Of a stretch of 64,000 bases of DNA, positions 1,254-61,180 are shown in pieces; position 1 is the stretch's first letter; each line of letters begins with the position of its first letter. The stretch spans positions 139,254,001 to 139,318,000 of the forward strand of contig CM059431.1 in assembly GCA_030390025.1 (NCBI GenBank), given 5' to 3'. Under the pieces are notes generated by a model. It was not told the DNA's origin and ran no database searches. It saw nothing but the letters and a program-made list of their open reading frames with translations. The position numbers and the translations under genes are program-made. This stretch comes from Squalus acanthias. Lineage: Eukaryota.

Positions 1254-1333
1254 TGTTTGTTCAAATGACTGTAACTAATATCAATGATCAGGGGGCAGAG
1301 CTGTGCGGGTGGAGATTTAGCTCCCCTATTAAA
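1254..1333 (+). promoter_or_regulatory. Putative promoter of GPCR gene A: TGTTTGTTCAAATGACTGTAAC, CAGGGGGCAG and TATTAAA
   Basis: The motif at 1254-1275 recurs at a similar distance upstream of gene B. A TATA-like box at 1327-1333 lies ~85 nt before the ATG. Confidence 0.6.
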
Positions 1334-1416
1334 CTGACTTCATTCAATGTACTGCTCAGATTTTACACCGGGGGTTGTGCACTCGTCACGATAGAAACCG
1401 TCGTTTCTCAGAGAAG

Positions 1417-1483
1417 ATGGGAGTAGTACTTAATGAAATAACAACGATTTACTACCCTATTCTTGCTGCTGTCGGCGTTCCTG
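1417..1483 (+). CDS. GPR139-like GPCR gene A, exon 1 (MGVVLNEITTIYYPILAAVGVP)
   Basis: ATG at 1417, 22 codons plus 1 nt, then a GTAAG donor at 1484. Phase 1 joins exon 2 in frame (GVP-V-NFVAIV). Homologous to exon 1 of gene B. Confidence 0.85.
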
Positions 1484-9559: not shown

Positions 9560-11570
9560 GTCCCACCTGCTCCTTCCGTAGCCCGCATTGAAACATGAAC
9601 TTGCCCAGTCCCCATTGTGCCTACACGCTGCCCAGTCTCAATTTCACATTCGCTCGACACAGTCCCTAATGCCCTGGCCAATCCTCATTGTACCTCCTTC
9701 CTCCTCAGTCTCCATTGCTCCTTAACCCTGCCCATCCCATATTGTAACATAAGCCAAACCAATCCGCTTTGCAGCTTCACCCTGCAGTGTCAGCATTGCA
9801 CATTAAACCGATCATTCATCATTGTACCTTCACCCTGCACAGTCACTATTGTACCTTCAACTTGTGCTGTCCCCATTGTACCGTGACCCTGCTCTGTCCC
9901 CATTAAACATAATTCTGCACTTTCCCCATTGCACCTTCAACCTGCTCAGTGTGCATTGCACATTGACGCCTGCCAGCCCCCATTGCACATTTACCCCACT
10001 CAGTCTCCATTGCACATTTACCCCGCTTAGACTCCACTGCACATTCACACACTCGAAGCCTCCATTATACATTTATTCCGCTCAGTCTCCATTGCCCATT
10101 CACGCCATCCTGTCTCCCTTGCACATTCTCCTCGCCCAGTATCCATTGCACATTCACTCGCTCCCATCCTCCATTGTACATTCACCCAATCGCACCCCCA
10201 TTGCACATTTTCCTCGCCCAGTCTCCATTGCACATTCGACCCGCCCAGTCTCAATTGAATATTTTCTCTGCCGAGTCTCCATCGCCCATTCATTCCGCCC
10301 AGTCTCCATTGCAAATTCTCCTCGCCCAGTATCCGTTGTACATTCACACAATCGCACCCCCATTGCACATTCTCCTCGCCTAGTATCCATTGTACATTCA
10401 CCCAATCGCAGCCCCATTGCACATTCTCCTCGCCCAGTATCCATTGTACATTCACCCAATCGCAGCACACATTGTACATTCTCCTCGCCCAGTATCCGTT
10501 GTACATTTACCCAATCGCAGCCCACATTGCGCATTCTCCTCGCCCAGTATCCATTGTACATTCACCCAATCGCAGCACACATTGTACATTCTCCTCGCCC
10601 AATATCCATTGTACATTCACCCAATCGCAGCCCACATTGTACATTCTCCTCGCCCAGTATCTATTGTACATTCACCCAATCGCTGCCCCATTGCACATTC
10701 TCCCCGCCCAGTCTCCATTGACCATTTACCCAATCGCAGCCCCATTGCACATTCTCCCCGCCCAGTAGCCATAGTACATTCACCCAATCGCAGCCCCATT
10801 GCAAATTCTCCCCGCCCAGTATCCGCTGCACATTCTCCCCGTTCAGTCTCCATTGCACATTCTCCCTGCCAGTCTCCATTGCTCATTCTCCCCGCCCAGT
10901 CTCCATTGCACATTCACCCCGCCCAGTCTCCATTGCTCATTCACCCCGCCCAGTCTCCATTACACATTGACACTGCCCAGTCTCCATTGCCCATTCTCCC
11001 TGCCCAGTCTCCATTGCTCATTCACCCCGCCCAGTCTCCATTGCTCATTCACCCCGCCCAGTCTCCATTACACATTGACACTGCCCAGTCTCCATTGCCG
11101 ATTCTCCCTCTCCAGTCTCCATTGCACTTTCACCCCGCCCAGTCTCCATTGCCCATTCTCCCCTTCCAGTCTCCATTGCCCATTCTCCCCTTCCAGTCTC
11201 CATTGCTCATTCACCCCTTCCAGTCTCCATTGCTCATTCACCCCGCCCTGTCTCCATTGCCCATTCACCCCGCCCAGTCTCCATTGCCCATTCATCCCTT
11301 CCAGTCTCCATTGCTCATTCACCCCGCCCAGTCTCCATTGCCCATTCACCCTGCCCAGTCGCCATTGCTCATTCTCCCCGCGCAGTCTCCATTGCCCAGT
11401 CTCCATTGCACATTCTCACCTTCCAGTCTCCATTGCACATTCACCCCGCCCAGTCTCCATTGCCCATTCTCCACGCCCAGTCTCCATTGCACATTTACCC
11501 CGCCCAGTCTCCATTGCTCATTCACCCCGCCCAGTCTCCATTACACATTCGCCCTTCCCAGTCTCCTTGC
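9560..11570. repeat. 27-bp C-rich minisatellite (GCCCAGTCTCCATTGCTCATTCACCCC) with a 54-bp dimer in its middle
   Basis: 9-aa (PAQSPLLIH) and 18-aa (HSPRPVSIVHSPNRSPIA) periodicity in the ORF track. Lies in the intron of gene A. Confidence 0.92.
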
Positions 11571-11911: not shown

Positions 11912-12799
11912 TTAACTTTGTTGCGATTGTGGTCCTGTCCCGAGGAAATTGCGGTCTCTCGAAATGTGTGACTCTCTACCTGGTGGCCATGGCAGCGGCG
12001 GACCTCCTGGTTGTTGTCACCGATGTCATATTAAGGTGCATTGCTGATATTTATTTCCCTGTTTCATTCTTGACCATTAACCTCGTGTGCCGTCTCAACG
12101 CTGTCCTGATGTTTGCAGCCACAGAAACTTCAGTCTGGTTCACGGTGGTTTTCACCTTCGATCGATTTGTGGCCATTTGTTGTCAGAAGCTGAGAGCTAA
12201 ATATTGCACCGAAAAAACGGCGGCTATTGTTATCGCGGTGGTGAGTGTGCTGAGCTGTTTGCAAAGCATTCCCTGGTACTTTGTATCTGACCCTGAGTTT
12301 ATAATGGACAATGTACCCCGGGGTTGTGTCATGAAACCCACCTTTTTTTACTGCACCTGCGTGGGGAGCATTTGAAATACTTCACCTTGTTTTAACCCCT
12401 TTTATACCATTTATTCTGATTTTCCTGTTCAATGCTCTCACCGCCAGGCATATTTTGGCGGCCAGTAGGGTCCGCAAGGGAATCCGGGGCCGCAGCAATG
12501 GAGAGAATCACAAGGATCCAGAGATACAGAACCGAAAGAAATCCATCATTTTACTCTTCAGTATATCGGGCACTTTCATACTCTTATGGAGCACAGAAGT
12601 TGTATATTTTATCTCCCTGCATGTCACAAACGCCCAGTTCTATACAGCCAGTGTCCTTGAATCAGCCGGAATCATGCTTCAGCTGCTGAGTACCTGCACC
12701 AACGCGTGTATTTATGGCGTGACACAGAGTAAGTTCAGAGAGGAGCTGAAGAACGCAGCGAAATACTCCCTGAATCTGGTTTCTAAATTATTTCAATAA
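11912..12799 (+). CDS. GPR139-like GPCR gene A, exon 2 (TM1-TM7), with a +1 frameshift at T7 12343-12349 (pseudogene or assembly indel)
   Basis: Acceptor ctttttctctattacag|TT. Motifs NFVAIVVLSRGNCGLSKC, AMAAADLL, FTFDRFVAIC and CTNACIY. Removing one T gives ..TFFTAPAWGAFEILHLVLTPFIPF.., a 317-aa protein in total. AATAAA at 12955. Confidence 0.9.
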
Positions 12800-13439: not shown

Positions 13440-14512
13440 TATCATTTTCTGAATGGCAGGCAGTAACAAGTGGGGTACCACAGGGATCTGTCCTGGGTCC
13501 CCAGCTGTTCACAATTTACATTAATGACCTGGATCAGGGAGTCGGATGCAGCATTTCCAAATTTGCAGACGACACTAAACTAGGAGGGGGGGGTGGGCTC
13601 AGAGGAGGAGACCAGGAAGCTCCAGAGCGATTTGGACAGACTGGGTGATTGGGCGGATAAATGGCAGATGCACTATAATGTGGACAAGTGCGAAGTTATC
13701 CACCTTGGGTGCAGGAACGGGAGGGCAAATTATTATTTAAATGGCAATAAATTGGGAGAGGGGGAAGTACAGAGAGACCTGGGTGTTCTTGTACACCAGT
13801 CACTGAAGGCGAGCATGCAGGTGCAACAGGCGATCAAGAAGGCAAACGGTATGCTGGCCTTCATAGCAAAAGGGTTGGAATACAGGAACAGGGATACCTT
13901 GCTGCAGCTGTACAGGGCACTGGTGAGACCACACCTCGAGTACTGTGTACAGTTTTGGTCGCCTCATCTGAGGAAAGATGTTCTTGCCATGGAGGGGGTG
14001 CAGCGGCGATTCACCAGGCTGATACCAGGAATGGCGGGATTGACCTATGAGGAGAGACTATGTAGTTTAGGGATGTACACACTGGAGTTTAGAAGATTGA
14101 GAGGGGACCTCATAGAAGTGTATAAAATTCTGACAGGGCTAGACAGACTAGATGCAGAAGGGATGTTTCCCTTGGCGGGTGAGAACAGAACTAGAGGACA
14201 TAATTTAAGGATAAGGGCTAAACCATTTAGGACAGAAATGAGGGGGAATTTCTTCACTCAGAGGGTGGTGAACCTGTGGAACTCATTGCCACAGAGGGCA
14301 GTGTACGCCAGCTCATTAAATATATTTAAGAGGGAATTAGATATATTTCTACAGGCAAAAGGGGTTAAGGGTTACGGAGAGAAGGCGGGGACGGGATACT
14401 GAATTGGAGGATCAGCCATGATCTCATTAAATGGCGGAGCAGGCTCGAAGGGCCGGATGGCCTACTCCTGCTCCTATCTTCTATGTATCTATGTATCTAT
14501 GTATCTATGTAT
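13440..14512 (+). mobile_element. Young 5'-truncated CR1 LINE
   Basis: [17 protein letters not shown], then a 269-aa ORF to 14402. The only lesion is an extra G in G8 at 13586-13593. Tail (CTATGTAT)n. Confidence 0.95.
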
Positions 14513-14789: not shown

Positions 14790-16690
14790 GTTCTGTCCCC
14801 CTCCTCCTCTGGCACATTCTCCTGCTTTGAGGATTTCACCTGTTCCCCTCACTTTTCACCTCTCATTTAAACTCCTTGTTCTGTACCAGCCATACAAGTA
14901 TCACACGAAGTTTCTCACCGAGATACCTTCACTGCTTTCCTCCCTCAGCCTCTGCACCAAGCGACTTCTCATGCTCGGTGATTTGAAGCTCCATCTCAAC
15001 TCATCATGCTCTTTCTTCTCTGAGTTCACAGCCCTCCTATCCTCCCTTAATCGCTCCCTCCATATAAACTCCCCTACCCATTTGATGGCCACCCCTTCAC
15101 CTTGCCCTCTCACGTGCCCTCGCAACTCGCATCATGTTAATCACAGATTAGAACATTCCATATCACTTCCTTGTATCGCTCCCCACCACATCCTCCTTCC
15201 TCCTTTCAACGCCACTTCCATATATGTCAGACCCTGGGGTAAAAATCTCTCCCCCAAGTCACTTTCAACTGCACATTCAAGTTCCCACTGTAAAGCTTTT
15301 GTTTCACCATTCAACGTGACATTTCTGCAGCTACCGATCTGCCCAATCACACCCTCACCTAAAACTTTGATGCCTTTGTCATCATTAAAACCATTCCTCT
15401 CTCTCTCTTACCCTGGTCGATTCCCCTGATAAGCCCATCATATCCGCTACCTTGAGTCTAAGGGATGCAAACTTGAACGTTTATGGAGGACTGCTAGTTA
15501 GTCATCCATCTTCAGGTCTGGCTGGACCACATAAAGTACTATCAGGTCCTGCTCTCCTCCGCCAAAACTGCTCACTTTTCAAGGATATCCTGGAATGCAA
15601 AGACAACTCCCAGATTTTTTCTCCGGAAACTACAGGCTTCTCACCCATCTTCCCTGCCTCCCAAACCTTCACCTCCAACAACAAGTGCGAGGAGCTCACG
15701 AACATCGTTGTCACCAACAGTTATAAATTACTCGCAGCTGCCTCTGCCGCTTCCCTCACTTCCCGTAACCCACCGGGCCAAACTCTTTCTAAGTTTTCCC
15801 CCTGCCCCAGCCCTGAACTGACCTATTTCTCTGGCTTTACTCCTATCGCCCCTCATTCTCTCTGCGAGCTCTTCTTTTCCATGAGATCCACTTCCTGCTC
15901 CCTCGACCCTATTCCCACTAAACTGCTGACCACCCAACCTCCCTTCCTGATCCCCATGTTAGCTAATATTTTTAACGGCTCCATCTCCTCAGGTAATGAC
16001 CTCCCCTTAATATCTGCCGTTGTCACACCTCTCGTCAAAAAACCTTTGCCTCCTCTGCTCTTGCAAACTACCTCCCCATCTTCAATCCCATTTCCCCTAC
16101 AAAGTCCTTGAACGTGCAGTCTCCTCCCAAAAACATGTCCATCTTTCCTGCTTTATCATAGCTCCAATCAGGTTTCCGCCTATCCCACTGTATCATCAAA
16201 TTCACAAATTACATCCTGCGTTACTGCGACCGTGGTAAACAATTTCTCCTCATCCTTTCCCACCTGTTTGCAGCCTTCGATACGGATGACCACAGCATCC
16301 TCCTCCAACGCCATTCTTTTTTCATCCATCTTGGTGGGACTTCAATCGCCTAGTTCCATTCTTATCTATCCAATCGTTGCCAGGTAATCTCCTGCAATGG
16401 CTTCTCTTTCCGCTGCCGCACCGTTACCTGTGGAGTCTCCTGAGAATCTATCCTTGGCCCCTCCAACTTCTCATCTACATCCTGCTCCTCGGTGACATCA
16501 TCCAGCAACACAGCTTGAGATTCCACATGAGCTCTGCCTCACCACCACTTCTCTCGAAACCTCCACTGTCATTACATTGTCATACTGCATGTCCAACATG
16601 CAGTACTGCATGAGCAGAAAGTTCCTCCAACTAACTAATGGGGTCCGAAGCCATTGTCTTCGCATCCCGCCACAAACTGTGTTCTCTGGG
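14790..16690 (+). mobile_element. L2 LINE, degraded EN/RT
   Basis: LLMLGDLKLHL, SCSLDPIPTKLL, and AAFDT.DH.ILL remnants. Confidence 0.85.
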
Positions 16691-17345
16691 ACCTAGGGAG
16701 AGAGTTCTTTCGGGGATTTATATTTAAATCCTCACATCAATAATAGAACCCAGGGAGAGAGTCCTATTGGGGATTTACATGCAAATCCTCTCAGCAATAT
16801 TAACACCCAGGGAGACTGGCCTATTGGGATTTACATGTAAATCCTCTCACCAATATTATTACCCAGGGATACTGATCTATTGGGATTTACATGCAAATCC
16901 TCTCAGCAATATTAGTACTCAGGGAGAATGGCCGATTGGAATTTAAATTTAAATCCTCACATCAATATTAGGACGCAGTGAGAGAGTACTATTGTGATTT
17001 ACATTTACATCACCACACCAATAAAAGGACTCCGGGAGAGAGTCCGATAGGGGATTTGTTTTTAAATCCTTTCACCAATATTAGGACTCAGGGAGAGAGT
17101 CTATAGGGGATTTGTTTTTAAATCCTCTCACCAATATTAGGATAAAAGAAGAGATCCTGCTGGGGATATATATTTACATCCTTTCGCCGTTATTATGACA
17201 GAGGGAAAGAATCCTTTTGAGATTTACATGTAAACATTCACCAATATTAGGACCCAGTGAGAGTTTCCTACTGGGATTTAAATTTAAATCCTCACACCAA
17301 TATTAGGACCCATGATGGGTCGCCTAATTTGGGATTTGCATTTGG
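16690..17345. repeat. ~56-57-bp tandem repeat, ~12 copies, each with the palindrome GGATTTACATGTAAATCC
   Basis: Units start at about 16693, 16750, 16807, 16862, 16918 and onward. Confidence 0.88.
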
Positions 17346-18690: not shown

Positions 18691-19674
18691 GCCAGTGAAT
18701 CTGAAGTCAAATTAACGCATCAAATGCCAAATTTGGCCCAGATACTAAACATCTCCCAATAGCTAGTTAGACTCTCACCTCGGCAAAATCATCGATTGAA
18801 GTGATTCTCAGTAAAGCTCCTCACATTTCCAATCATTGTTGAAGTTTCCCGTTTCTGGCCTTCGACACTGGGGACTTGGCCGCAACAGATCTTCTCTATG
18901 AACCTAGCGAACTTTCTCCAGTCCCAGTTAGTGTAGTGATGATTCGACTTATCTCTCTCCACCTTCCTGGGATACTGCTTAATCAAATAAACGTTTAAGA
19001 AAAACGAGATTCAAATTAATTAGAAAATATGTTACAGGAAAACAATGGGACTATTTTTTGACTATAAATATATTTAATTTGAAAATATTTACAATTTTTT
19101 GAAGTATTTACTTTACTGTTAAATAGTTCTTTCGTTTGCCCCTATAGGCGCTAAATTCACACACAGGAAAAATTCAGTTGGTTGCGCCTCCCGTTAGCGC
19201 CTTAAGAGGGCGCTAATGGGGCGCAAAGCCGCTGGCGCCCGGGCGCAGCGATGTTTGCGCTGCTCGGGAACTTAACTAGACATTGTGCGGCGGCGCTAAA
19301 CTTTACCGTCGCGACCACCTGCGCGCGCAGATTGTGACGTCATTCCATGGTGCAATGCCCTTGTGGCGCCCCGGAGCGGAAATTGAGTGGCGCCCCCTGC
19401 CTTACCGCCTGGCGCATCCAACGACCGGAAGACTGGAACGCTATCAATCGCTGTGGGGCTGGGGGGTGGCGCTATTTAAAGGGGGCCTCTTCCTGTCTTT
19501 TTCTGTGGTTGACATTTTTGCACCACTCGTTCTGAGAGAGAGAGAGAGATTCGGAGAGAGAGAAAGAGAGACTTCTGCATTGTGTCAACGCTTTGTGAGG
19601 TAGTTTTGCCTACTGATCCTAACTTCGCTGGTACTTTGGTTGCTGTCCTTCATAACTTTGCTTGCAAAGAGACT

Positions 19675-20836
19675 ATGGGGGCTGCACTGAATGGGGGCGT
19701 CGTCCTGCTCCAGCTGAATCGGAGGACACAGAGACGCAGAGAGAGAGTGGCAATGATGGCCAGACGGAGGAGGGCCAACAGGCGTCTGTACAGGAGAGCT
19801 TACCCTCCCAGGGTATACGGTGAACAGCTCTCCGACATTCATATGTCTGAGGAGCTGTGTTTGCGAAGGCTGCGATTCAGCAAGGAGGTGGTCACTGAGC
19901 TCTGCCACCTGCTGCAGCCAGATCTGCAGCCTCAACTGAGGTCCAGGACGTCTCTGTCGGTGGCAGTGAAGGTCACAGTGGCTCTCAACTTCTATGCTAC
20001 TGGCTCATTTCAAGCTGCTGCTGGGGACCTCGCCAATATCTCCCAGTTCGCGGTGCATTGATGCATCCGGCAGGTCACAAATTCCCTCTTTAAAAGGAGA
20101 CGAGAGTTCATCTCTTTCCCCATGACCCTAGACACATCAGCGTGACCGCGCTCTGGGCTTTGCGAGGATAGCGGGCTTCCCCATGGTGCAGGGCGCCATT
20201 GACTGCATGTATGTGGCTTTGCGTGCTCCACATGAGAATGCCGAGGATTTCCGGAACAGAAAGGGGTTCCATTCCTTGAATGTTCAGTTGGTCTGTGACC
20301 ACAGACCGCTGATACTCGCTGTCAATGCCCACTATCCTGGCAGCTGCCACGATGCTTTCATCCTGCGCCAGACTACTGTGGCAGAACTTTTCGAGGCACC
20401 GCATCAGCCAGTTGGTTGGCTTCTCGGGGACAAGGGGTATCCATTGAGCACCTGGCTGATGACACCGCTCCGTACGCCCAACACCCCTGCTGAGCTGCGG
20501 TACAATGAGAGCCATCAAGCTACCAGGAACATCATTGAGCGCACAATCGGCGTGCTGAAGCAACGGTTCCGCTGTCTCGACCATTCTGGAGGAGCCCTGC
20601 AGTACTCGCCTGAGCGAGTATCCAACTTCGTAGTTGTGTGCTGCATGTTGCATAAAATGGCAATCGTCAGGACACAGCCAATGCCACCAGGTCTTGGAGC
20701 ACCACCAGAGAAGGAGGAGGAAGAGGAGGAAGAGGACGAGGAGGATGATCATCAGCAGCACCAAGGCGGGAGGGCGGCCCACAATGGTGAAACTGCAAGG
20801 GCCGTCCGTCAACGGCTGATAGCAAGCCGCTTCTAG
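19675..20836 (+). pseudogene. Harbinger (HARBI1-like) DDE transposase, disabled
   Basis: [66 protein letters not shown] at 20059-20061 and a frameshift near 20130. Confidence 0.93.
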
Positions 20837-21148
20837 GGCCCCTGCTGTGGAAATGGCTTCTGCCATTGCTAACAACATCAATGAACCCAGCACGCAACCC
20901 CTAAGCCGGCCAAGGCACCAATGATTCCAAACACCAAACATGTATATTTTGAATACAAAAACTTATTTATTTTACAAACTCTGTGTGTGTCATTTCCTCA
21001 TGACAAACTCATAGTAATAAACACAAAAAAACAGTCATTAACATAACTGGTTCTCACAACCTGGAGATAATGTCCAAAACACTAGACAAAAGTTGGACCA
21101 TGAACCTCGGCCTTTAATAAAAAAATGACCAGCATTTTGTCACACCTC

Positions 21149-23071
21149 CTACTTTTTGCCCTTCGAGGGTGATCTCCTTCCCTTGCGCACTTCCCCCCTT
21201 CTAACCCTACTGCTCCTCCGTAATGGGACCTCAGTGGCTGCAGCAAGGCTGGTGGAAGGCTGCTGATTGTCAGACCCTGACACTGCAGATGCCCCTGAAG
21301 GACGGCCTCGACCAGTTCTGGGCCTGGAGGGCCCGGCTGCAGACTGCACCAACTCTGCATGGGCGGCAGCAGTCAGTCCTACAGGCGGTGGCAAGTGCAG
21401 TGGAGAAGTGACAGTGTTGGCAGCAGGAATGCTGTAATCGTGAGAGAGGACAGCAACTCCCTGCTCGACCGACACACTGGCACTCCCACGGGGCAGCACT
21501 TCAGCATCCGGAGCAATCTGCTGGAGCACAGATTGCTGGCCTGCTGCGGCGCGGTGAGAGCCCCGGGGACATGTGAACGAACCATCGAGGTTGGCAGCAG
21601 TCAGTGCTCGCGTGGCCTCAATCTGAGTCTGCATGAGAGCAGTCAGAGATGGGATCACGGCAGTCAGTGACTGAATTGCAGCACTAAGCTTTAGTGTGGC
21701 ATCCGCCTGTGCTACAGCGAAGTGCTCCACACTCCTTGCCAGTGACTCAATGCATTCGGGCACCCTTCCCACTGCACCCATGAGCTCAGTGTGCATGCCC
21801 ACCGCCTGTGTGTTCATTTCTGCGATCAGCCGCTCCTCCTCTGCGTCCATTGCAGTAGGAGTCGCTGGCATACTCTCCCTCTGGGGAGAAGGCCCCCGTT
21901 CTTCCCTACCCCCATGGCGTTGCTGCAGCCCGCTGGGTCCTGGAGCTTCACCCTCATCAGACCCTTCCCCCCTGCTCCCCTCCAGGGAAGGCGTGTTCCC
22001 AGTGTGGGCATGGGCTTCCTCGGGAGAGGGTGGCACTGATGCTCCGGCTTCCTCTTCCTCCTCGGCTGCAGCTTCACTCCCACTGGCAGCTTCAGGGCCC
22101 GTCTCCTCAGCTGGTGAATCACCATCTGAAAGCAGGGAGGTACAAGAGTGGCTTTAGCGTGAGGACAGGGTGGCAGTAAGGGAGGAATAAATGCAGCGAG
22201 TTAGCAAGTTGGATTGAAAGTGTCAAAGGCTGGTGTTGTGAGGGACCAGTGGAAGGACAGAGGACAAAAAGGTGATGACCTTACCATTGCTGTCCAGAAC
22301 GGGGTCGGCGTCTCCAGTGGCGACGGGACCGATCACCCGGCTTGCCACAATCCTGTGGACGCGCTCCTCAAGATCGCTGAGGGGTTGCAGCTGAGGCCGC
22401 CCTCCACCTGTCCGTTGCTGCTGTCTCCTATTATGCGCCAGCTTGGCCTGCAAGAAAAAGGACAGCATCTGAGTAAATATACAGCCATGGTCTTGCCTGA
22501 TGTGCCTCCCATAGGTGAATAGCCCTTACTGTATGCAGCCATGGTCTTGCCTGATGTGCCTCCCATAGGTTAATAGCGCTTACTGTATGCAAAGTGTGGA
22601 ATGCGTGTGTGTGTTTCATGAAAGGGCCATAGGTGTTGGATGAGTGTTGTGCATTGGGGTTTTAAGACCCTCTGGCCATAGAGTGAGGTTGAGATGGAGG
22701 GATGGAGAGGTATTGAGAAAAAGCCACTCACCCTGACGACCTGAGTGAGGTCGTTGAACTTTTTGCGGCATTGAACATGGGTCCTGGGCACCATGCTCCT
22801 GGAGGAAATAACAACAGAAAACGCTGGAAAAACTCAGCAGGCCAGGCAGGATCCGTGGAGAGAGAAAGAGAGTTAACGTTTCAGGTCGAAGACCTTTCAT
22901 CCTGGAGGAGATGCTCTGAGCCACCTCCCTCCACACTCTTCTGTACTCGCGTGGCAAAGGCCTCCTGCCACTCTCAGGGAAGAGTATAGATCTTCTGCGC
23001 TCCACCGCGCCAACCTGAGCATCCAAGGCCCGCTCGGTGAAGCGCTGAGCTCGTTCTCTCACCCTCTCCAT
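21149..23071 (-). pseudogene. Harbinger Myb/SANT-like DNA-binding gene, 3 exons (23071-22732, 22447-22285, 22125-21149), interrupted by a 103-bp insertion
   Basis: RAQRFTERAL..W.EVA..RT..QCRKKFNDL|AKLAHNRRQQQRTGGG. GT-AG introns in phases 0 and 1. Excising the insertion gives 458 aa with no stop. Confidence 0.88.
22807..22899 (-). mobile_element. Penelope-like pLTR fragment with a 10-bp target-site duplication
   Basis: TCCTGGAGGA at 22797-22806 and 22900-22909. Near-identical to 47384-47478. Confidence 0.9.
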
Positions 23072-24624: not shown

Positions 24625-25190
24625 GGTTAGGAACAGCATGGGTAAGACTGAGTGTAAAGTTCACTCAACACTGTACTATCCCAGGGCAGGTACGGCATGG
24701 GTTATTTACAGAGTAAAGCTCTATCTATAACGTGCAATCAAACCCTCCAAGGGCAGATACAACAAGGGTTTGTTCCAGAGTAAATTTCCATCTGCACTCT
24801 CCCCTCAAACACTCCCATGGCAGGTACAGGTCAGGTTAGCTACAGCGTAATGTTCCCTCTACACTTTCCAATCAAATACTCCCAGGGCAGGTAAAGAAAG
24901 GGTTAGATGCAGAGTAAAGCTCCCTCTACACTGGACCTTCAAACACTCCCAGGGCAGGTACAGGACAGGTTAGCAACAGCGTAATGCTCCCTCTACACCT
25001 TCCCATCAAATACTCCCAGGGCAGGTAAAGAAAGGGTGAGATACAGAGTAAAGCTCCCTCTACACTGATCTTTCAAACACTCCCAAGGCAGGTACAGCAT
25101 GGATTAGCTACAGATTAAAGCTTCCTTTCCACTGTCCCGCAAAACACAATCAGGGCAGGTGCGGCAGGGGTTAAATATAGTGTAAATCTC
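24625..25190. repeat. 67-bp tandem repeat, ~8 copies
   Basis: CTCCCAGGGCAGGTAC..GGTTAGATACAGAGTAAAGCTCCCTCTACAC recurs at ~67-bp spacing. Confidence 0.9.
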
Positions 25191-26198: not shown

Positions 26199-29100
26199 AA
26201 AACTGAGACAAAACAATGCGATAATTTTAAATATAATTGATTCTATCCGTTTTGGATGCAAATTTACATTTCCTGACTCTGCTGCTAACAATGTGTTTCC
26301 CTGTATCTGTGATATTGATTCATTTACTGGGGCATCTGTCTTCATTCCAAATGTGTTTCCTTGTATCTGTGATATTGATTCATTTATTGGGGGACATCTG
26401 TCTTCATTGCAAATGTGTTTCCCCGTATCTGTGATATTGATTCCTTTATTGGGTCATCTGTCTTCATTCCAAATGTGTTTCCCTGTATCTGTGATATTGA
26501 TTCATTTATTGGGGCATCTGTCTTCATTCCAAATGTGTTTCCATGTATCTGTGATAGTGATTCATTTATTGGGGGGCATCTGTCTTCATTCCAAATGCGT
26601 TTCCCTATATCTGTGACATTGATTCCTTTATTGGGACATTTGTCTTCATTCCAAAAGTGTTTCCCTGTATCTGTGATTTTTATTCATTTATTGGGGGTCA
26701 CCTATCTTCATTCCAAATCTATTTCCCTGCATCTGTGATATTGATTCATTTATTCGGGTATCTGTCTTCATTCCAAATGTTTTTCCCCTGTATCTCAGAT
26801 AATGATTCATTTATTGGGTGATCTGTTTTAATTCCAAATGTATTTCCCTGTATCTGTGATATTCATTCGTTTATTGAGGGCATCTGTCTTCAATCCAAAT
26901 GTATTTCCCTGTATCTGTGATATTGATTCGTTTATTGAGGGCATCTGTCTTCAATCCAAATGTATAACCCGGGTTCTGTGATATTGATTCGTTTATTGGG
27001 GCATCTGTCTTCATTCCAAATGTCTTTCCATCTGTTTGTGATTTTTATTTATTTATTGGGAGTCATCTGTCTTCAATCCAAATGTATTTCCCTGTATCTG
27101 TGATATTGATTCGTTTATTGAGGGCATCTGTCTTCAATCCAAATGTATTTCCCTGTATCTGTGATATTGCTTCTTTTATTCGGGGGCATCTGTCTTAATT
27201 CCAAATGAGATCTCCTGCATCTGTGATATTGATTCATTTATTGGGTCATCTGTCTTAATTCCAAAGTCTTTCCTTGTTTCTCGGATATTGATTCATTTAT
27301 TGAGCGGAATCTGTCCTCATTCCAAATGGTTTTCCCTCTATCTCTGATAATGTTTCATTTATTGGGGGGCATCTGTCTTCATTCCAAATGTTTTTTCCCT
27401 CTGTCTGTTATTCTTACTCATTTATTGGCGGTCATCTGTCTTCATTCCAAATGTTTTTCCCTGTATCTGCGATATTGATTCATTTATTGGGGGTCATCTA
27501 TCATCATTCCAATTGTGTTTCCCTCTATCTGTGACGTTGATTCATTTATTGGGGGTCATCTGTGTTCATTCCAAATGTGTTTCCCTGATTCTGTGATATT
27601 GATTCGTTTATTGGGGCTTCTGTCTTCATTCCAAAGCTATTTCGCTGTATCTGTGATATTGATTCATTTATATGGGCATCGTTCTTCATTAAAAATGTGT
27701 TTCCCTGTATCTGTGATTTTTATTCATTTATTGGCGGTCATGTGTCTTCATTCCAAATGTGTTTCCCTCTTTCTTTGATATTGATTCATTTATTGGGTCT
27801 CATCTGTCTTAATTAAGATGGAGAGTGAAGTAGTTGACTCAGAGACTAGGGTCCTGAATTTAAATAAAGGAAACTACGATGGTATGAGGCGCGAATTGGC
27901 TAGGATGGATTGGGGAACGTTACCTAAAGGGTTGACGGTGGATAGGCAATGGCAAACATTTAAAAATCGCATGGATAAACGACAGAATTTGTTCATCCCT
28001 GTTTGGCATAACAATAAAACAGAAAAGGTGACACAACCGTGGCGAACAAGGGAAATTAGGGATAGCATAAGATCCAAGGAGAGAACATATAAATTGGCCA
28101 GAAAAAGCAGCAAACCTGAGGATTGGGGTCAGTTTAGGATTCAGCAAAGGAGGACAAAGGGATTAATTAAGAGGGGGAAAATAGACTATAAGAGTAAGTA
28201 TGCAGGGACATAAAAACTGACTGTAAAAGCTGCTATAGATATGTGAAGCGAAAAAGATTGGTGAAGTCAAGCGTAGGTCCCTTGCTGTCAGAATCAGGGG
28301 AATTTATAATGGGGAACAAAGAAATGGCAGACCAATTAAATACATACTTTGGTTCTGTCTTCACAAAGGAGGACACAAATAACCTCCCAGAGATATCGGG
28401 GAACATAGCGTCTACTGAGAGAGTAGAACTGAATGAAATCATTATTTGTAGGGAAATGGCGTTAGGGAAATTGACGGGATTGAAGGCCGATTAATCCCCA
28501 GGGCCTGATAATCTACATCCTAGGGTACTTAAGGAAGTGGCCCTTGAAATAGTAGATTCATTGCTGGGCATCTTCCAAAATTCTATAGACTCTGGAACAG
28601 TTCCCATGGATTGTAGGTTAGCTAATGTAACCCCACTATTTAAAAAAGGTGGGAAAGAGAAAATGGGGAATTATAGACCGGTAAGCCTGAAATCGGTAGT
28701 GGGGAGAATGCTAGAGTCCATTAGAAAAGATGTAATAGCAGAGCACTTGGAAAACATTGACAGGATCGGACAAACTCTATATGGATTTACAAAAGGTAAA
28801 TCATGCTTGACTAATCTACTGGAATTTTTTGAGGATGTAACTGGTAGAATAGATAAGGGACAAGCAGTGGATGTGGTGTAGTTGGACTTTCAGAAGGCTT
28901 TCGATAAGGTCCCGCATAAGAGATTAGCGTGCAAAGGTAAAGCACATGGGATTGGGGGTAAGGTACTGACTTGGATAGAGATCTGATTGGCAGACAGGAA
29001 GCAAAGTGTTGGAATAAACGGGTCTTTTTCCGAGTGGAAGGCAGTGACTAGTGGGGTACCGCAGGGATCGGTGCTAGGTACCCAGTTATTCACAATATAT

Positions 29101-29492: not shown

Positions 29493-31544
29493 GAGGTTAT
29501 CCACGTTAGTGGCAAAAACAGTAAGGCAGATTATTATCTGAACGGCAATAGATTGGGCAAAGGGAAAGTGCAACGAGACCTGGGAGTCCTTGTGCACCAG
29601 TCGTTGAATGTAAACATGCAGCTGCAGCAGGCGGTTAAGAAGGCAAACGGTATGTTGGCCTTCATAGCGAGATGATTCTAGTACAGGAGTAAGGATATCT
29701 TGCTGCAGTTGTACAGGCCCTTGGTAAGACCACACTTTGAGTATTGTGTGAAGTTCTGGCCGCTTTATCTGAGGAAGGATGTTCTTGCCATGGAGGGGTT
29801 GCAGCGAAGATTCACCAGACTGATACCTGGGATGGCAGAAATGACGTATGAAGAGAGATTGGGACTATTGGGTTTGTATTCGCTAAAGTTTAAAAGAATG
29901 AGTGGGGATCTCATTGAAACTTATAAAATTCTAACAGGACTAGACAGACTAGATGCAGGAAGGATGTTTCCGATGGCGGGGGAGTCCAGAACCAGTGGTC
30001 ACACTCTAAGGATAAGAGGTAAAGCCATTTAGGACAGAGATGAGGAGGAATTTCATCATCCAGAGAGTGGTGAACCTTTGGAATTCTCTACCACAGAAGG
30101 CAGTTGAGGCCAATTCATTAAATATATTCAAGAATGAGTTCGATATATTTCTAAAGGCTAAAGGGATCAAGGGATATGGGGAGAAAGCAGGGACATGGTA
30201 CTGAATTTGGATGATCAGCCATGATCTCATTAAATGGCGGAGCAGGTTCGAGGGGCCGAATGGCCTACTCCTGCTCCTATCTTCTATGTTTCTATGTAAT
30301 TCCAAATGTGTTTCCCTGTATCTTTGATATTGATTCATTTATTGGGGGGCATCGGTCTTCATTGCAAATGTATTTCCACGTATCTGTGATATTGATAAAT
30401 TTATTAGGGCATCTGCCTTCATTCCAAATGTGTTTCCTTGTATCTGTGAATTTTATACATTTATTGGAGGTAATCTGTCTTCAGTCGAAACGTGTTTCCC
30501 TATATCTGTGATACTGATTCATTTATTGCGGCATCTGTCTTCAATCCAAATGCCTTTCCCTGTATCTGTAACACTGATTCATTTATTGCGGCATCTTGTT
30601 TTATTCCAAATGTGTTTCCCTGTATCTTTGATATTGTTTCATTTATTGGGGCATCTCTCTTAATTCCAAATTTGTTTCCCTGTATCTGTGATATTGATTC
30701 ATTTATTGGGGCATCCGTTTTCCTCCAAATATGTTTCCCTGTATCTGTGATATTGATTCATGTATTGGGGGGCATCTGACTTCATTCCAAGTGTGTTTCC
30801 CTGTATCTATGATATTGATTCATTCATTGGGGCATCTGACTTCATTCCAAGTGTGTTTCCCTGTTTTCATTCCAAATGCATTTCCATCTAACTCTGATAT
30901 TGATTCATTTATTGGGGGACATCCGTTTTTTTCCAAATGTGTTTCCCTGTATCTGAGATATTTATTCATTTATTGTGGTCTTTGTCTTCATGCCAAATCA
31001 GTTTCCCTGTATTTGTGATAGTGATTCATTTTTTCGGCATCATCTGTTTTCATTCCAAATGTATTTCCCTGTATCTGTGATATTGATTCATTTATTGGTT
31101 GGGATCTGTTTTCATTCAAATGTGTTTCCCTGTATCTGTGATATTGATTCATTTATTGGGGGGCATCTGTCTTCATTCCAAATGATTTCCCTCTATCTGT
31201 GATATTGATTCATTTATTCGGGCATCTGTCTTCATTCCTTGTGTGTTTTGTAAGTATGTATATCTCAATATTTTACTTTTAAATTACACAAAATTACATT
31301 CATATATAGCACAGACACACACAAATACAATGAAACTAACACAGAGATAGACCCAAATGTATTCATGATTAGTACGCAAATATACCCAAGTTCATTTAGA
31401 ATTATCACAGATGCAATTATATCTATATTATGTAATATATCTCATATTAGCAAAGTACACTTTAAACTGGCACAGATAAAAAGCATCACACTCATGACAT
31501 AAACACTGACTTTATATATAAACATCACAACCGCACAGTAGGCT

Positions 31545-51998: not shown

Positions 51999-52896
51999 TC
52001 ATTTTCGAAAAACAATAAACTTCCATGGAGATTTAATCAGCTTCTTCAGCTCTGCCCTGAATTTAGTTTGAGTAGCTGCATAAATACACGTGTTTGAACA
52101 GGAACTCAAATACATGAGCATATATCCGGTTGCTGTGGCGATGTATGCGGGAACTGAATAATCGCCTCGGTAAAACGCGGTTTTTGACAGTCTGGTAGTT
52201 AAATAACTAACAACAGATGTCAGCCACAACAGTATAAAACTGCCCGATACACTGAAAAGTAAAATGATGGATTTCCTTTGGTTCTCCATCTCTGGATCGC
52301 TCTGATTCTCACTGCTGTGACCCCGAAATCCCCTGCGGGCTCTACTGGCCACTAAAATACGTCTGACTTTCAAACAATTAAACAGTAATATCAAAGCAAA
52401 TGCAAGCCAAGCAATGAAAATGCTTTCTAACCAGTAGTACGCGACACTTGCAGCCGATGATAAAAACTCCACTCTGGCGCGGCAACCCCAGGGAACATTG
52501 TTAATTATTCGCTCAGGTTCATATGCAAACCAAAAAGGGAGGCTCTGTAAACAGATCAGGAGAGAGACCGTTGTTATAACCGCGGCCGCAGTTCTCACAG
52601 TGCAATACTTGGTTTTAAACTTCTCACAACATATAGCTACAAATCGGTCAAATGTGAATGAGACTGTAAACCACACCGACAAATAAAGGTGAAACATTGC
52701 ACATATATAATGATCTTACAAACGGCAGTTAACGACAGGAATGAATGTGGAAAGTGATAACGTATAATGCGGTTCACTAGTATATTGATGATCATGACCA
52801 GTAGATCTGCTGTTGCCATGGCCACCATGTAGACAGAGATACATTTGGAAAGGCCGCAATTTCCTCTGGAGAGAATCACGATTGCCAGTAGGTTCG
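51999..52896 (-). CDS. GPR139-like GPCR gene B, exon 2, with a -1 frameshift near 52685-52689 (pseudogene or assembly indel)
   Basis: Acceptor ctctttctcacag|CG. Motifs ANLLAIVILSRGNCGLSKC, AMATADLL, FTFDRFVAIC, VPWGC and SNTCIY. One added base gives 322 aa in total. Confidence 0.9.
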
Positions 52897-53647: not shown

Positions 53648-53717
53648 CGGGAACGCCAAAGGCTGCGAGAAAATGATAGTAAATCTCCTTTATCTGTAGA
53701 ATTGCTGGCCGTGCCAT
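53648..53717 (-). CDS. GPR139-like GPCR gene B, exon 1 (MARPAILQIKEIYYHFLAAFGVP)
   Basis: ATG at 53717, 23 codons plus 1 nt, GTAAG donor, 751-bp phase-1 intron. Same intron position as gene A. Confidence 0.88.
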
Positions 53718-53796: not shown

Positions 53797-53874
53797 TTTA
53801 TAGGACCGCCGCTGCCCCTGTGAGAAAATCATGTTACACAATAATTGTCGCTGGTTACAGTCACTTAACAAACA
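53797..53874 (-). promoter_or_regulatory. Putative promoter of gene B: TGTTTGTTAAGTGACTGTAAC, CAGGGGCAG and TATAAA
   Basis: TATAAA at 53802-53797; shared motif at 53874-53854. Confidence 0.65.
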
Positions 53875-54169
53875 AGGAGCGATTTTCCCATTCAGTTTGC
53901 CCCGGCCGCCACTGGGGAAATTGAACAGATCAGTCCATGAAACTCGGTCCATTAAAATCAATGAACGGAAAATAATCCCAGAGGGAATGTGCTCTGCGAA
54001 TCTCTGGTGAAAACTGAAGGCAACATCCTTCCCGGACTCTGCATTAGGTTCTTGAAGTCACATGTTAATTTGATGAAATCGTCACTCATCCATTGTATAA
54101 CGATTTGTTTTGTACTGTGATGATGAATGATGATGAATCGGCTCCAACATGACTGACGATGCTTTTAAT

Positions 54170-57100
54170 CTTACATTACTGGTGGAGACCCTACTCTAAC
54201 ATTACTGCTGGTGTCACTACTCAAACATTACTGGTGGTGACCCTACACTAACATTACTGGTGGTAACCCTACTCAAACATTACTGGTGGTGACCCTACAC
54301 TAACATTACTGGTGGAAACCCTACTCAAACATTACTCGTGGTGACCCTACTCTAACATAAATGCTGGTGACAGTATTCAAACATTACTGGTGGTGACTCT
54401 ACTCTAACATTACTGGTGGTGACACTACTCTAACATTACTGGTGGTGACACTACTCAAACATTACTGGTGGTGACCCTACTCTAACATTAATGCTGTTGA
54501 CACTACTCAAACATTACTGGTGGTGACCTTACTCTAACATTACTGATGTTGACTCTACTCTAACATTACTGGTGGTGACCCTACTCTAACATTACTGGTG
54601 GTGAACTTACTCTAACATTACCGGTGATGACCCTACTCTAACATTAATGGTGGTGACGCTACTCTAACATTACTGGTGGTGACCCTACTCTAACATTACT
54701 GGTGGTGACCCTACTCTAACATTACTGGTGGTGACCCTACTCTAACATTAATGCTGGTGACCCTACTCTAACATTACTGCTGGTGACACGACGCTGCCAA
54801 TAATTGTGTTGATCCTACTGTAACATTCCAGTTGATGACCCTACGCAACATTACTGAAGTTGAGCCTACACTCACAGTACATGTCATGAATCTAGGCTAC
54901 TAAAGCTGGTGTGATCGTACTCCTACATTATTAGTGCTGATCCTGCTGTGACATTACTGGTGGTGAACCTGATCCAACATTACTGGTGGTGAACCAACTC
55001 TAACATTACTGGTGGTGTCTCAACTTTAACATTACTGGTGGTGAATCCACTCTAACATTACTGTTGGTGACCCTGCTCTAACATTACTGGTGGTGACCCT
55101 ACTCTTACATTACTGGTTGTGAACCTGTTCTAACATTACTGGTGGTGACCCTACTTTAACATTACTGGTGGTGTCTCAACTCTAACATTACATATGGTGA
55201 AGCTGCTCTAACATTACTGGTGGTGAACCTGCTCTAACATTATTGGTGGTGACCCTACTCTAACATTACTGTTGGTGAACCAACTCTAACATTACTGGTG
55301 GTGAACCTACTCTAACATTACTGGTGGTGAACCTGTTCTAACATTACTGGTGGTGACCCTACTCTAACATTACTGGTGGTGTCTCAACTCTAACATGACA
55401 TATGGTGAAGCTGCTCTAACATTAATGGTGGTGTATCAACTCTAACATTAATAGTGGTGAACCTACTGTAAAATTACTGGTGGTGAACCTGCTCTAACAT
55501 TACTGGTGGTGTCTCAACTATAACATTACTGGTGGTGAACTGGCTCGAACATTACTGGTGGTGTCTCAACTCTAACATTACTGGTGTTGACCCTACTCTA
55601 ACATTACTGGTGGCGAGCCTACTCTAACATTACTGGTGTTGACCCTACTCTAACATTACTGGTGGTGACACTGCTCTAAAAATTACTGGTGGGGAACCTA
55701 CTCTAACATTACTGGTGGTTTCTCAACTCTAACATTACTGGTGTTGACCCTACTCTAACATTACTAGGTGGTGTCTCAACTCTAACATTACTGGTGTTGA
55801 CCCTACTCTAACATTACTGGTGGCGAGCCTACTCTAAAATTACTGGTGGTGACACTTCTATAACATTACTGGTGGTGACCCTACGCTACCATTACTCGTG
55901 GTGACCCTACTCTGACATTACTGGTGGTGACACTACTCTAACATTACTGGTGGTGACTCTACTCTAACATTACTCGTGGTGACCCTACACTAACATTACT
56001 GATGGAGAAACTACTATAACATTACTGGTGGTGTCTGAACTCTAACATTACTAGCGGTGAACCTGCTCTAACATTACTGGTGGTGACCCTACTCTATCAT
56101 TACTGGTGGTGACACTAATCAAACATTACTGATGGCGAACCTACTCTAACATTACTGGTGGTGACCCTACTCGATCATTACTGTTGGTGACCCTACTCTA
56201 TCATTACTGGTGGTGACCCTAATCTAACATTATTGATGGCAAACCTACTCTAACATTATTGCTGGTGTCTCAACTTTAACATTACTGGCGCTGACCCTAC
56301 TCTAACATTACTGATGGCGAAACTACTCTAACATTACTGGTGGTGACCCTACTCTAACATTACTGGTGGTGACCCTACTCTAACATTACTGGTGGTGACC
56401 CTACTCTAACATTACTGGTGGTGACCCTACTCTAACATTACTGGTGGTAACACGACGCTGTCAATAATTGTGTTGATCCTACTGTAACATTACAGGTGAT
56501 GACCCTACGCAACACTACTGAAGTTGATCCTACACTCACAGTACATGTCATGAATCTAGGCTACTATTGCTGGTAGTGATCATACTCCTACATTATTAGT
56601 GGTGATCCTGCTGTAACATTCCTGGTGGTGAACTGCTCTAACATTAATGGTGGTGTCTCAACTCTAACATTACTGGTGGAGTGTCAACGCTAACATTACT
56701 GGTGGTGAATCCACTCTAACATTACTGGCGGTGAACCGGCTCTAAAATTACTGGTGGTGACCCTACTGTAACATTACTGGTTGTGAACCTGATCTAACAT
56801 TACTGGTGGTGACTCAACTCTAACATTACTGGTGCTGAACCAACTCCAACATTACTGGTGGTGACTCTACTCTTACATTACTGGTGGTGTCTCAACTCTA
56901 ACATTACTTATGGTGAACCTGCTCTAACATTACTGGTGGTGAACCAGATCTAACATTACTGGTGGTGTCTCAACTCTAACTTTACTGGTGGTAAACCTGC
57001 TCTAACATTACTGGTGGTGAACCTGCTCCAACATTACTGGTGTTGTCTCAACTCTAACATTACTGGTGGTGACTCAACTCTAACATTACTGGTGATGACC

Positions 57101-60100
57101 CTACTCTAACATTACTGGTGGTGACACTACTCTAACATTACTCGTGGTGACCCTACTCTAATATTACTGATTTTGATCCTACTCTATCATTACTGGTGGT
57201 GACACTACTATAACATTACTGATGGTGACCCTAAGCTAAAATTATTGGTGATGACCCTAATCTAACATTACTGCTGGTGACATTACTGGTGTGGTCTCAA
57301 CTCTAACATTACTTGTAGTGCAACCTTACTGAAGTTGAGCCTACACTCACAGTACATGTCATGAATCTAGGCTGCTATTGCTGGTAGTGATCGTATTCCT
57401 ACATTATTAGTGGTGATCCTGCTGTAACATTACTGGTAGTGACTCTAATCTATCATTACTGGTGGTGACTCCACTCTCACATTACTGGTGGAGTATCAAC
57501 TCTAACATTACTGGTGAGGTCCCTACTCTAACATTACTGGTGTTGAACCTGCTCTAACATTACTGGTGGTGAACCTGCTCTAACATTATTGGTGGTGACC
57601 GTACTCTAACATTACTGTTGGTGAACCAACTCTAACATTACTGGTGGTGAACCTACTCTAACATTACTGGTGGTGAACCTGCTCTAACATTACTGTTGGT
57701 GAACCTGCTTTAATATTACTGGTGGTGAACCTGCTCTAACATTACTGGTGGTGACCCTACTCTAACATTACTGCTGGTGTCTCAACTCTAACATTACTGG
57801 GGTTGAACCTGCTCTAACATTACTGGTGGTATATCAACTGTAACATTACTGGTGGTGAACCTACGCTAACATTATTTTGGCGAACCTACTCTAACATTAC
57901 TGGTGGTGTCTTAACTCTAACATTACTGGTGGTGAAACTGCTCTAACATTACTGGTGGTGTCTCATCTCTAACATCTCTTACATTACTGTTGGTGACCCT
58001 GCTCTAACATTAATGGTGGAGAACCTACTCTAACATTACTGGCGATGACCCTCCTCTATCATTACTGGTGGTGACGCTATTCTAACTTTTCTGGTGGTGA
58101 CACTCCTCTAACATTACTGTTGGTGACTATAATCTAACATTACTGGTGGTGACACTACTCTAACATTACTGGTGGTGACCCTACTGTATCATTACTGGTG
58201 GTGACCCTACTCTATCATTACTGGTGGTGACCCACTCTAACATTACTGGTGGTTTCCTTACTCTATCATTACTGCTGTTGTCCCTACTCTAACATTACTG
58301 ATAGTGACTATAATCTAACATTACTGGTGGTGACACTACTCTAACATTACTGGTGGTGACCCTACACTAACATTAATGGTGGTGACCCTATTCTAACATT
58401 ACTGGTGGTGACCCTACTCTATCATTACTGTTGGTCACCCTGCAATAACATTACTGGAGGCGTGCCTAGTTGAAATTAATGGTGGTGATTCTACTCTAAA
58501 TTTAATGATGTTGTTCCTACGCTAACATTACTAGTGCTTTTTCAATCTAACATTACTGGTAGTAACTCTAGTCTATCATTAATGATGGCAATCCTGCACT
58601 AACATTATTTGTGGTGACGCTACTCTAACATTACTTTTAGACACCCTACTCTAACATTACTGCAGTGACACTGCTCTATCATTACTGGTGGAGACCCTAA
58701 TGTAACCTTGCTGATGGTGTATCACTTTAAATTAGGTTTGCTGACCTTACTCTAACATCAAATTTGTGGTTTCCCTACTCTATCATTATTGGTGGTGACT
58801 CTACTTTTTTAGTAATGATGGTGGCCCTCCTCGAAAATTACTTGTGGTGACGCTACACTTACACGACAGGTGTTGATCCTACTCTAACATTAATTGTGCT
58901 GGCCATACTCGAACATTAATGGTGTTGACCTTACTCTATCATTACTGGCGGTGAACCAACTCTTATATTACTGATGGTGACTCTACTCTAACATTAATGC
59001 TTGTGACCATATTCGAACATTATTGGTGGTGACTCCACTGTAACATTACTGGTGGTAACAGTACTCTTACGTTACAGGTGCTGAAACTACACGAACACAA
59101 CTGATGGTGACACTGCTCTAACATAGCTGATTGTGACCGTACTCTAAAATCAATGGTGGGGAAATTAAACTAACATTACTGATGGTGACTTACTGTAGCA
59201 TTGCTGTTGGTGGAACTACACTAACATTACTGATGCTGACCCTATACTAACATTGCTGATGGTGAATCCACGCCAACATTATTGGTATTGACCATACCCT
59301 AACATAAATGTTGTCGTGTCTCTACTCTAACATTACTGGTGGTGATTAGACTCAAACATTACTGGTGGTGAACCTACTCTAACATTACTGGTGGTGACCC
59401 TTCCATAACATTACAATGATGACACTGCTCTAACAATACTGGTGGTGACACTACTCTAACATTACTGGTGATTAACCTACCCCAACATTACTGGTGGTGA
59501 CCCTACTCGAACATTACTAGTGGTAACTCTATGATAACTTTAATGGTGGTGATTCTACTCTATCGTTACTGGTGGTGACCCTACTCCAGCATTACTGACA
59601 GTGAACCAACTCTAACATTACTGGTGGTGAGCCTATGATAAATGTACTAGTGCTGACACTTCTCTAACGTTAATGGCGGTGATCCTACTCCAACATTACT
59701 GGTGGTGACCCAACTCTAACATTACTGGTGTTGACGCTACTCTAACATTACTGTTGGTGAAACTACTTTATCATTACTGTTTTTGACCCTGGTCGAACAT
59801 TACTGGTGGTGACTCTACTCTCACATTACTGGTGGTGAACCTACTCTAACATTACTGGTTGTGACACTACTCTGACATTACTGGTGGTGATCCTACTGTA
59901 ATTTACTGGTGGTGACTCGACTCTAACATTACTGACTTTGACACGGTGATTACATTACTGCTGGTGACACTACTCTAACATTACTGGAGATGACCCCACT
60001 TTTACTTTACTGGTGGTGGCCCTACTCTAACATTACAGGTGATAACCCTACGCTAAAATTAATGAAGTTGATCGTACTTTCAGTGTACATGTCAAGAAAC

Positions 60101-61180
60101 TAGTGTAACATTAAAAGTGGTGAACCTACTCTAAAATTAATATTGATATCCCAACTCTAACCTTACTGGTGTTGATCGTACTATAACGTTACTGTTGGTG
60201 ACCTTACTCGAAAATTTCTCCTCGTGAAACTAATTTAACACTACTGATGGTGACCATTCTCCAACATTGCTGGTGGTGACCGTGATTTAAAATTACCTTT
60301 GGTTAACCCACTCTGACATAACTGATTGTGACCCTTCTCTATCATACCTGTTGGCGACCCTACTCTAACATTATTGGTGGTGAATCTACTCCAACATTAA
60401 TGGTGGTGGCCCACACTAACATTGCTGGTGCTGACTGCACTCTAACATTACTGGTGGTGACTCAACTCCAACATTTCTTGTGGTGACCCTACTCTAACGT
60501 TACTGGTGGTGACCCTACTCTAACATTTGTGGTGATGACCCTACTCTAACGTTACTGATGGTGAAACAACTCTATCATTACTGGTGGCGACCCTACTCTA
60601 GCAATACTGTTGTTGACCCTACTCTAATATTATTGGCGGTGATCCTACTCTAACATTACTGGTAATGACACTACTTTAACGTTACTGGTGGCGAAACTAT
60701 CTAACGTTACTTGTGGTGTCCCTGGTTTAACATTACTCTTGCTGAACCTACTCTAACACAACTGACTGTGACCCTACTCTAACATTACTGGTTGTGACTG
60801 TATGATAACTTTACTGATAGTGATCCTACAGTAACATATATGGTAGTGATCCTTCTGTAACATTACTGGTGATGCCGCACTCTAACAAATCTGATGGCTT
60901 ACTTTACTCCAACATTACTGCTGGTAACTCTACTCTAACATTACTGATGGTGACACTATTCCAACATTTTTGTTGGTGAATCTACTCTAACATTACTGGT
61001 GTTTACCCTGCTCTAACATAACTGGTGGTGACCCTACTCTATCGTTACTGGTGTTGAAACTACTCTAACAATTCTGTTCGTGAACCTAGTCTAGCATAAC
61101 TGATGGTGACCCTACTCTAACATTACTGATGGTGACCCTATTTTACATTACTGGTGGTGAGCCTATGATTAATTTACTGG
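54170..61180. repeat. 26-bp satellite (TAACATTACTGGTGGTGACCCTACTC), ~270 copies
   Basis: Direct 26-bp periodicity, e.g. 54661 and 54687; more diverged toward 58.4-61 kb. Confidence 0.97.

Follow-up and report, generated by a model that had tools for sequence, protein, structure and literature searches.

Promoter motifs that are common to a receptor family are not a new idea, and three described systems are the closest to the one reported here. The work on mouse V1R genes describes promoters with a block that is conserved within a subfamily, without ordinary homology across subfamilies, and with short motifs that recur across subfamilies (PMC1955453). Mammalian olfactory receptor promoters contain O/E and homeodomain sites, with TATA boxes in a subset; the word forkhead does not appear in the text of that paper (PMC3247239). 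The clustered protocadherin genes have a CSE region that binds CTCF (PMC3333863).

Here we analyze a 64-kb stretch of shark-type DNA (the window) that contains two convergent two-exon genes, A on the plus strand and B on the minus strand. The shark family resembles the V1R family in having both a block common to a clade, on the B side, and a motif shared across clades that no longer align, the latter represented by one A-side gene. However, the V1R blocks are approximately 0.5-1 kb in length and are located a long way upstream of the coding exon, whereas the shark block is approximately 145-190 nt and lies directly before coding exon 1. Also unlike the V1R motifs, the shark motif that spans the clades is a 21-mer, nearly exact, that keeps a constant spacing to the TATA-like site. 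Moreover, the V1R start sites were mapped by RACE, whereas the shark start sites are predicted from TATA/Inr spacing. The likeness to olfactory receptor promoters is that both belong to a large family of class A GPCRs with proximal motifs in common and, possibly, TATA boxes in a subset. The shark regions differ in having no O/E match; a homeodomain core is seen in gene B and is one letter off in gene A. With the protocadherin CSE, the shark element has in common that it is a short element recurring in promoters of a gene family, with a gene- or clade-specific upstream flank. In contrast, the fit to CTCF is poor in the shark genes, which are free-standing and have two exons. The shark element thus resembles the V1R, olfactory receptor and CSE elements in layout and belongs to none of them.

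Two genes of an elasmobranch receptor family

A 7tm_1 domain was detected in three of the four gene pieces, and both genes encode class A GPCRs. Exon 1 of gene A matches P0126 at 78%. No third gene of the family was found in the window. In the assembly each receptor gene carries one frameshift in exon 2, reflecting either an assembly error or a pseudogene. At 5 of 65 conserved columns gene B has a deviating residue (the median is 2), and 27 of 119 database proteins do no better. Because both genes are frameshifted and gene B departs at conserved columns, either gene may be a pseudogene.

Protein searches carried out with the gene B and gene A pieces returned 1202 and 1023 proteins, respectively. 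Among the best 120 of each list, shark or ray labels were found on 118 (B) and 119 (A), most of them named 'probable G-protein coupled receptor 139', and more than 1000 clusters of public proteins are related to genes A and B. Among solved structures, human GPR139 (PDB 7VUG, 9M42; E 1e-9) comes closest to a family member. This match covers the N-terminal half only and the prolactin-releasing peptide receptor is close behind (6e-9). FMRFamide-receptor-like clusters are also listed in the atlas searched, at 0.96-0.98. Since the lead of GPR139 over other peptide receptors in the PDB is narrow, we treat the name of the shark family as a label that, on these matches, does not imply orthology. Human GPR139 is both the best PDB match and the source of the database name, and the elasmobranchs differ by their large expansion.

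The ligands reported for GPR139 are L-Trp and L-Phe (PMC12208981). The passages on the fish 'GPR210' clade (PMC6504862) and the 'Orphan 139-like' clade (PMC5207463) list no sharks, and the string 'GPR' does not occur in the main text of the catshark 'Sensory Shark' paper (PMC11979771). Neither the expansion in sharks nor its promoter was described in any paper that a literature search turned up, in a collection with few subscription journals and few supplements from bioRxiv; the expansion is apparently undescribed. Family loci were not found in the metagenome or viral contigs searched. Matches to the box pattern described below did occur in metagenomes, 12 in number; as they have neither a family exon nor a TATA-like site in their vicinity, we attribute them to chance.

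Table 1. Positions of the receptor gene exons, the promoter-proximal elements and the neighbouring satellite in the window
Feature	Position	Strand	Remarks
Gene A, shared box	1254..1275	+	Forkhead-like TGTTTGT half and TGACTGTAAC half
Gene A, box extension	1276..1288	+	TAA, then CAAT.AT
Gene A, G-rich string CAGGGGGCAG	1289..1298	+	
Gene A, TATA-like TATTAAA	1327..1333	+	51 nt after box
Gene A, initiator-like TCAGATT	1356..1362	+	Compared with Inr consensus; predicted start
Gene A, exon 1	1417..1483	+	22 codons plus 1 nt; last residues GVP; GTAAG donor
Gene A, exon 2 (7tm_1)	11912..12799	+	Frameshift at T run 12343-12349
Gene B, exon 2 (7tm_1)	51999..52896	-	Frameshift near 52688
Gene B, exon 1	53648..53717	-	23 codons plus 1 nt; last residues GVP; GTAAG donor
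Gene B, TATAAA	53797..53802	-	51 nt after box, 85 nt before ATG
Upstream block common to many gene-B relatives	53810..53998	-	Contig alignments, four runs
Gene B, CAGGGGCAG	53812..53820	-	CAG after pyrimidine run; alternatively 3' splice acceptor-like
Gene B, shared box	53854..53874	-	String located in window
26-bp satellite array, 269 copies	54169..61165		Upstream of gene B (~300 nt from box)

A short box is shared by the upstream regions of both genes

A first-pass annotation of this DNA had described a promoter cassette upstream of both receptor genes, and all of the strings that it named were found in the window at the coordinates claimed for them. The box is 21–22 nt in length and occurs only twice in the 64-kb window. 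A pattern common to both copies, fitted after the fact, has these 2 matches in the window compared with 0 in 100 shuffles. When the two 300-nt upstream regions were aligned, the box was the top local alignment, with a score of 32 that was attained in 0 of 1000 dinucleotide shuffles of these regions. With 500-nt regions the box score was reached in 1 of 1000 shuffles, and with 1000-nt regions in 0 of 300. Other pieces of the window did not attain this score either (0/822 and 0/820). These results confirm that the 21–22-nt box is real.

The distance from the end of the box to the ATG is 142 nt in gene A and 137 nt in gene B, which agrees with the roughly 140 nt that had been annotated, and the distance to the TATA-like site is exactly 51 nt in both genes, a closer agreement that the annotation had not mentioned. 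The surrounding non-coding DNA had been said to lack similarity, and this proved to be the case. In shuffle tests no significant match was found between genes A and B in the intron start, the intron end, the 3' flank or the farther-upstream DNA; the intron-end match was reached by 28 of 500 shuffles and the 3'-flank match by 46 of 500. Introns and flanks of the two genes no longer align (z 0.7-1.5). Thus the box has been conserved, as claimed, whereas the introns and flanks of A and B have decayed. A 9-mer that is common to both first introns was considered separately and rejected, as it was not significant (244 of 500 shuffles).

An upstream block is common to relatives of gene B

Contigs of four public runs, from four differently labelled organisms, were aligned to positions 53350-54100 at 80% likeness. 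The runs contributed 262, 161, 109 and 46 contigs. Those under 90% alike number 109, 95, 73 and 37, respectively, so many of the contigs are paralogues. The contigs were selected by likeness to gene B, which biases them toward agreement in the box, and the DNA-level relatives that they represent are those of the B side. Summed contig depth was not used as a basis for ranking, and uncovered parts were counted only when they were bridged by a joint.

The block that emerged from these alignments is approximately 145–190 nt, and the box lies at, or close to, the end of it that faces the gene. Of the 15 joints listed (of 37), nine bridge exon 1 to the block, and all four runs are represented among them; in one bridging contig, 128 unlike letters take the place of 131 in the window. 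Block-located pieces account for 13 of the 32 listed (of 615). Of these 13, eight stop at 53854-53855, where the box ends, and 11 at 53987-53998, several of the stops being contig ends. The relatives of gene B have retained the block while approximately 130 nt between the block and exon 1 were replaced. Upstream of the box, a further stretch of approximately 125 nt is clade-specific, being common to the B relatives and absent from gene A.

Within the box region, none of the 40 difference rows listed (of 245) falls in 53854-53889. Just downstream, 62 contigs at 53853 and 70 contigs at 53851 differ from gene B and carry the gene A letters. With this out-of-sample comparison the shared core becomes longer and reads TGACTGTAACTAA (13/13). 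The gene A extension accordingly has the majority letters of the gene-B relatives at +1 and +3, where gene B of the window differs. At +6 (53848) the majority letter is that of neither window gene, and 58 contigs have a letter there that creates CCAAT. Changes in both halves of the box are seen in three contigs of one run, indicating that the box is not invariant. The element that had been proposed as family-wide is seen here in the relatives of gene B and in the single gene A.

Two stretches of the first intron of gene B (53389-53479 and 53540-53647) are also common to the contigs of relatives in all four runs, and it is possible that they are regulatory blocks.

Candidate binding sites and predicted transcription starts

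A 7-nt forkhead core was compared with the upstream regions as a string. It matches exactly in both boxes, and this is the only match in each 345-nt region, so that the resemblance of the box to a forkhead site, which had been pointed out before, is upheld at the level of a candidate site. The string TGTTTGTT occurs four times in the window. None of the consensus sequences tried, which were compared as strings and not as matrices, matched the 3' half of the box, and strings for the RFX X-box, AP-1, MEIS, octamer, NF-kB and O/E gave no exact match anywhere in the box. An NKX2-type string, exact in gene B and with one mismatch in gene A, is a lead only. In the two upstream regions, the 12-nt O/E (EBF) consensus string, used in place of a matrix, had no match within 2 mismatches, and the 10-nt form matched only with 2 mismatches. 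A homeodomain core is present once in gene B, 45 nt before the TATA-like site; gene A is one letter off at that place.

Neither TATA-like site satisfies the strict TATA consensus. In gene A, the A of the initiator-like site (1358) lies 31 nt past the first T of the TATA-like site, which is the canonical spacing. No clean Inr was found at the matching distance from TATA in gene B. From this spacing we infer that transcription would start at approximately 1358 in gene A and 53771 in gene B, about 31 nt past TATA, and these predicted starts would place the box at about -104 to -83. Counted from the predicted start, the CAAT/homeodomain-like site is near -75, the G-rich string is at -50 to -40 and the TATA-like site is at -31.

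The G-rich string had been presented as a further shared part of the cassette. CAGGGG(G)CAG is present in both genes but out of register between them, being 13 nt past the box in gene A vs 33 nt in gene B, and 28 nt vs 9 nt before TATA, a displacement of approximately 20 nt between the genes. The part of the claim that concerns CAGGGGCAG is weaker than it was made to appear.

The CpG o/e is 1.05 around exon 1 of gene B compared with a window median of 0.53; the value for gene A, 0.77, is unremarkable. In one example, the Heterodontus model P0035, an in-frame N-terminal extension contains YKG 28 codons before the usual Met. YKG is the expected reading of TATAAAGG at -84, and gene B has TATAAAGG at -85. 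In the 5' UTR of gene A, one frame of 1400-1416 reads VVSQR, which is also found in the N-terminal extension of the skate model P0167 of the same clade; this hints that the last part of the gene A 5' UTR is conserved.

Age of the box and evidence for selection

Genes A and B are identical at 144 of 264 aligned residues (55%) and at 28 of 59 four-fold sites (K2P about 0.97). In a phylogenetic tree they fall on opposite sides of a branch with an SH-aLRT of 100, and rays are nested among sharks on both the A and the B side. The tree was built from 40 of 226 usable rows, consisting of the nearest hits, 5 rays per side and a random remainder; the full row set gave the same A/B split. Sampling of the family was centred on queries A and B, and the two clades are to be read as such and not as a census. 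On this topology the A/B duplication is older than the shark–ray split. Because A and B belong to two clades that each include rays, the box also predates that split.

Neutral divergence was simulated with substitutions and indels in 12 settings of 300 pairs each. In every setting, no more than 0.7% of the pairs gave a hit of box strength in a 300-nt region that could not otherwise be aligned. A binomial test based on four-fold sites gave 0.013 expected chance hits as a point estimate and 0.84 at the upper 95% limit, and is weak alone; we consider the simulation to be the more telling of the two with respect to selection on the box. The retention of the box in two clades that predate the split, while neutral DNA decayed, argues that it is a selected element. 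Thus, of the co-regulating receptor promoter code that had been suggested, the shared, selected element is supported by its presence in two clades and by a block that is joined to exon 1 in four datasets, whereas the O/E site known from other receptor promoters was not found.

Repeats and other features of the window

The 26-bp satellite that lies upstream of gene B is absent from positions 1-1420 upstream of gene A, so that the box possibly has a greater age or a wider occurrence than the satellite array. ORFs at 19513-22200, on opposite strands, presumably encode a Harbinger-type transposase-like protein and its companion. A perfect 162-bp inverted repeat is present at 47381-48022 (47381-47542 vs 48022-47861), and related 97-bp pieces occur at 22805, 36863, 38446 and 61182; together these probably constitute a MITE family. 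Further minisatellites, with periods of 27, about 61, 56 and 67, were found at 9775-11570, 26290-27814, 30299-31238, 16689-17312 and 24679-25186, and a 27-bp array lies inside the intron of gene A. Many fragments of LINE reverse transcriptase are also present (62009-63562, 13584-14402 and others), including one open frame of 517 codons; we take these to be of the CR1/L2 type.

Discussion

The reading that we favor, with a probability of roughly 0.7, is that the box is an old promoter-proximal element of an elasmobranch GPCR family and that it is probably functional. It is most likely the oldest and most constrained piece of the proximal promoter of the family. Our model is a compact TATA promoter with a composite site for a FOX factor and a partner. 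A forkhead-family factor would bind the TGTTTGT half of the box and a second factor would bind the TGACTGTAAC(TAA) half, followed by a CCAAT or homeodomain-like site at about -75. The factor pair could then contact the TATA-bound machinery approximately five helical turns away. Each duplicated gene would inherit this compact module, such that new copies would be switched on in the same cell type.

This model has two main rivals. One is a splice acceptor upstream; the other is passive homology or gene conversion. According to the former, the region would be the 3' end of a 5'-UTR intron, with a CAG/G acceptor, a CTAAY branch point at the end of the box and a promoter farther upstream. Judged by its motifs, this arrangement fits gene B well. 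The CAG at 53820-53818 closes a run of pyrimidines, the last 10 nt of which are those of the true exon-2 acceptor, the majority letters of the relatives give a branch-point-like CTAAC approximately 32 nt upstream, and several joints resume at 53810-53823, at the CAG site and short of TATA. The fit to gene A appears poor, as its AG is only about 13 nt from CTAAT and lacks a pyrimidine tract. Five A-side Heptranchias models do share an extension of about 20 aa after unrelated pieces, as if an acceptor were located approximately 65 nt before the ATG, but those upstream pieces differ from one another and some are LINE- or paralogue-like, so that in our own reading they are prediction artefacts. 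Moreover, the distance that is constant between the genes is box to TATA rather than box to AG, and an acceptor would leave both the TGTTTGTT half and the 145-nt block unexplained. We consider a splice acceptor quite unlikely. Passive inheritance, in which the block was duplicated or homogenised by gene conversion and the box is a functionless last remnant of ancestry, seems to us similarly improbable. The family duplicates frequently and has many near-identical members, the confidence interval on neutral identity is wide, and conversion has been proposed for the V1R promoter blocks (PMC1955453). However, ancestry of this kind sits poorly with introns and flanks of A and B that cannot be aligned, with the outcome of the neutral simulation and with the persistence of the block in B relatives whose adjoining DNA was replaced. 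Conversion of a 21-nt tract that holds an indel, between genes that are 55% identical, would also be an unlikely event.

Two other explanations fit badly. An insulator, tether or enhancer dock comparable to the CTCF-bound protocadherin CSE, serving the choice of one gene per cell, would account for a common element before each gene of a clustered family, and CAGGGGGCAG of gene A agrees with the 3' portion of the CTCF core. Nevertheless, the best fits to that core have 3/14 mismatches in gene A, at this same string, and 5/14 in gene B, and no part of the region is less collinear than the G-rich string; we regard such a role as very unlikely. Hardly credible is the view that the block represents a dispersed repeat, or a gene for a non-coding RNA, lying upstream by chance. 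Many contigs per run do align to the block, but their numbers there (at most 70) resemble the counts at exon 1 and the intron start (42-67), to which contigs bridge it, and the block is single-copy in the window. In addition, a search of Rfam gave a single 14-bit match for gene B, against a gathering score of 50, and none for gene A.

A more speculative extension of the promoter-element model, which we put forward tentatively and hold to be rather doubtful, is that the 'GPR139-like' expansion constitutes an unrecognised chemosensory repertoire of sharks and rays, possibly amino-acid-sensing, with the box as the cis code that directs it to one sensory cell type. The known olfactory families are small in cartilaginous fishes, with 34 V2R and 4-9 receptors in each other family of the catshark (PMC10116579). 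If the proposal were true, the new repertoire would stand beside these small OR, TAAR and V1R sets and the modest V2R set. Independently of that proposal, the box can serve as a tag for first exons and promoters across the whole family, and, through the factors that bind it or through a reporter, as a handle on the cell type in which the receptors are expressed. It also offers a way to examine how a large receptor family confines its new copies to a single cell type.
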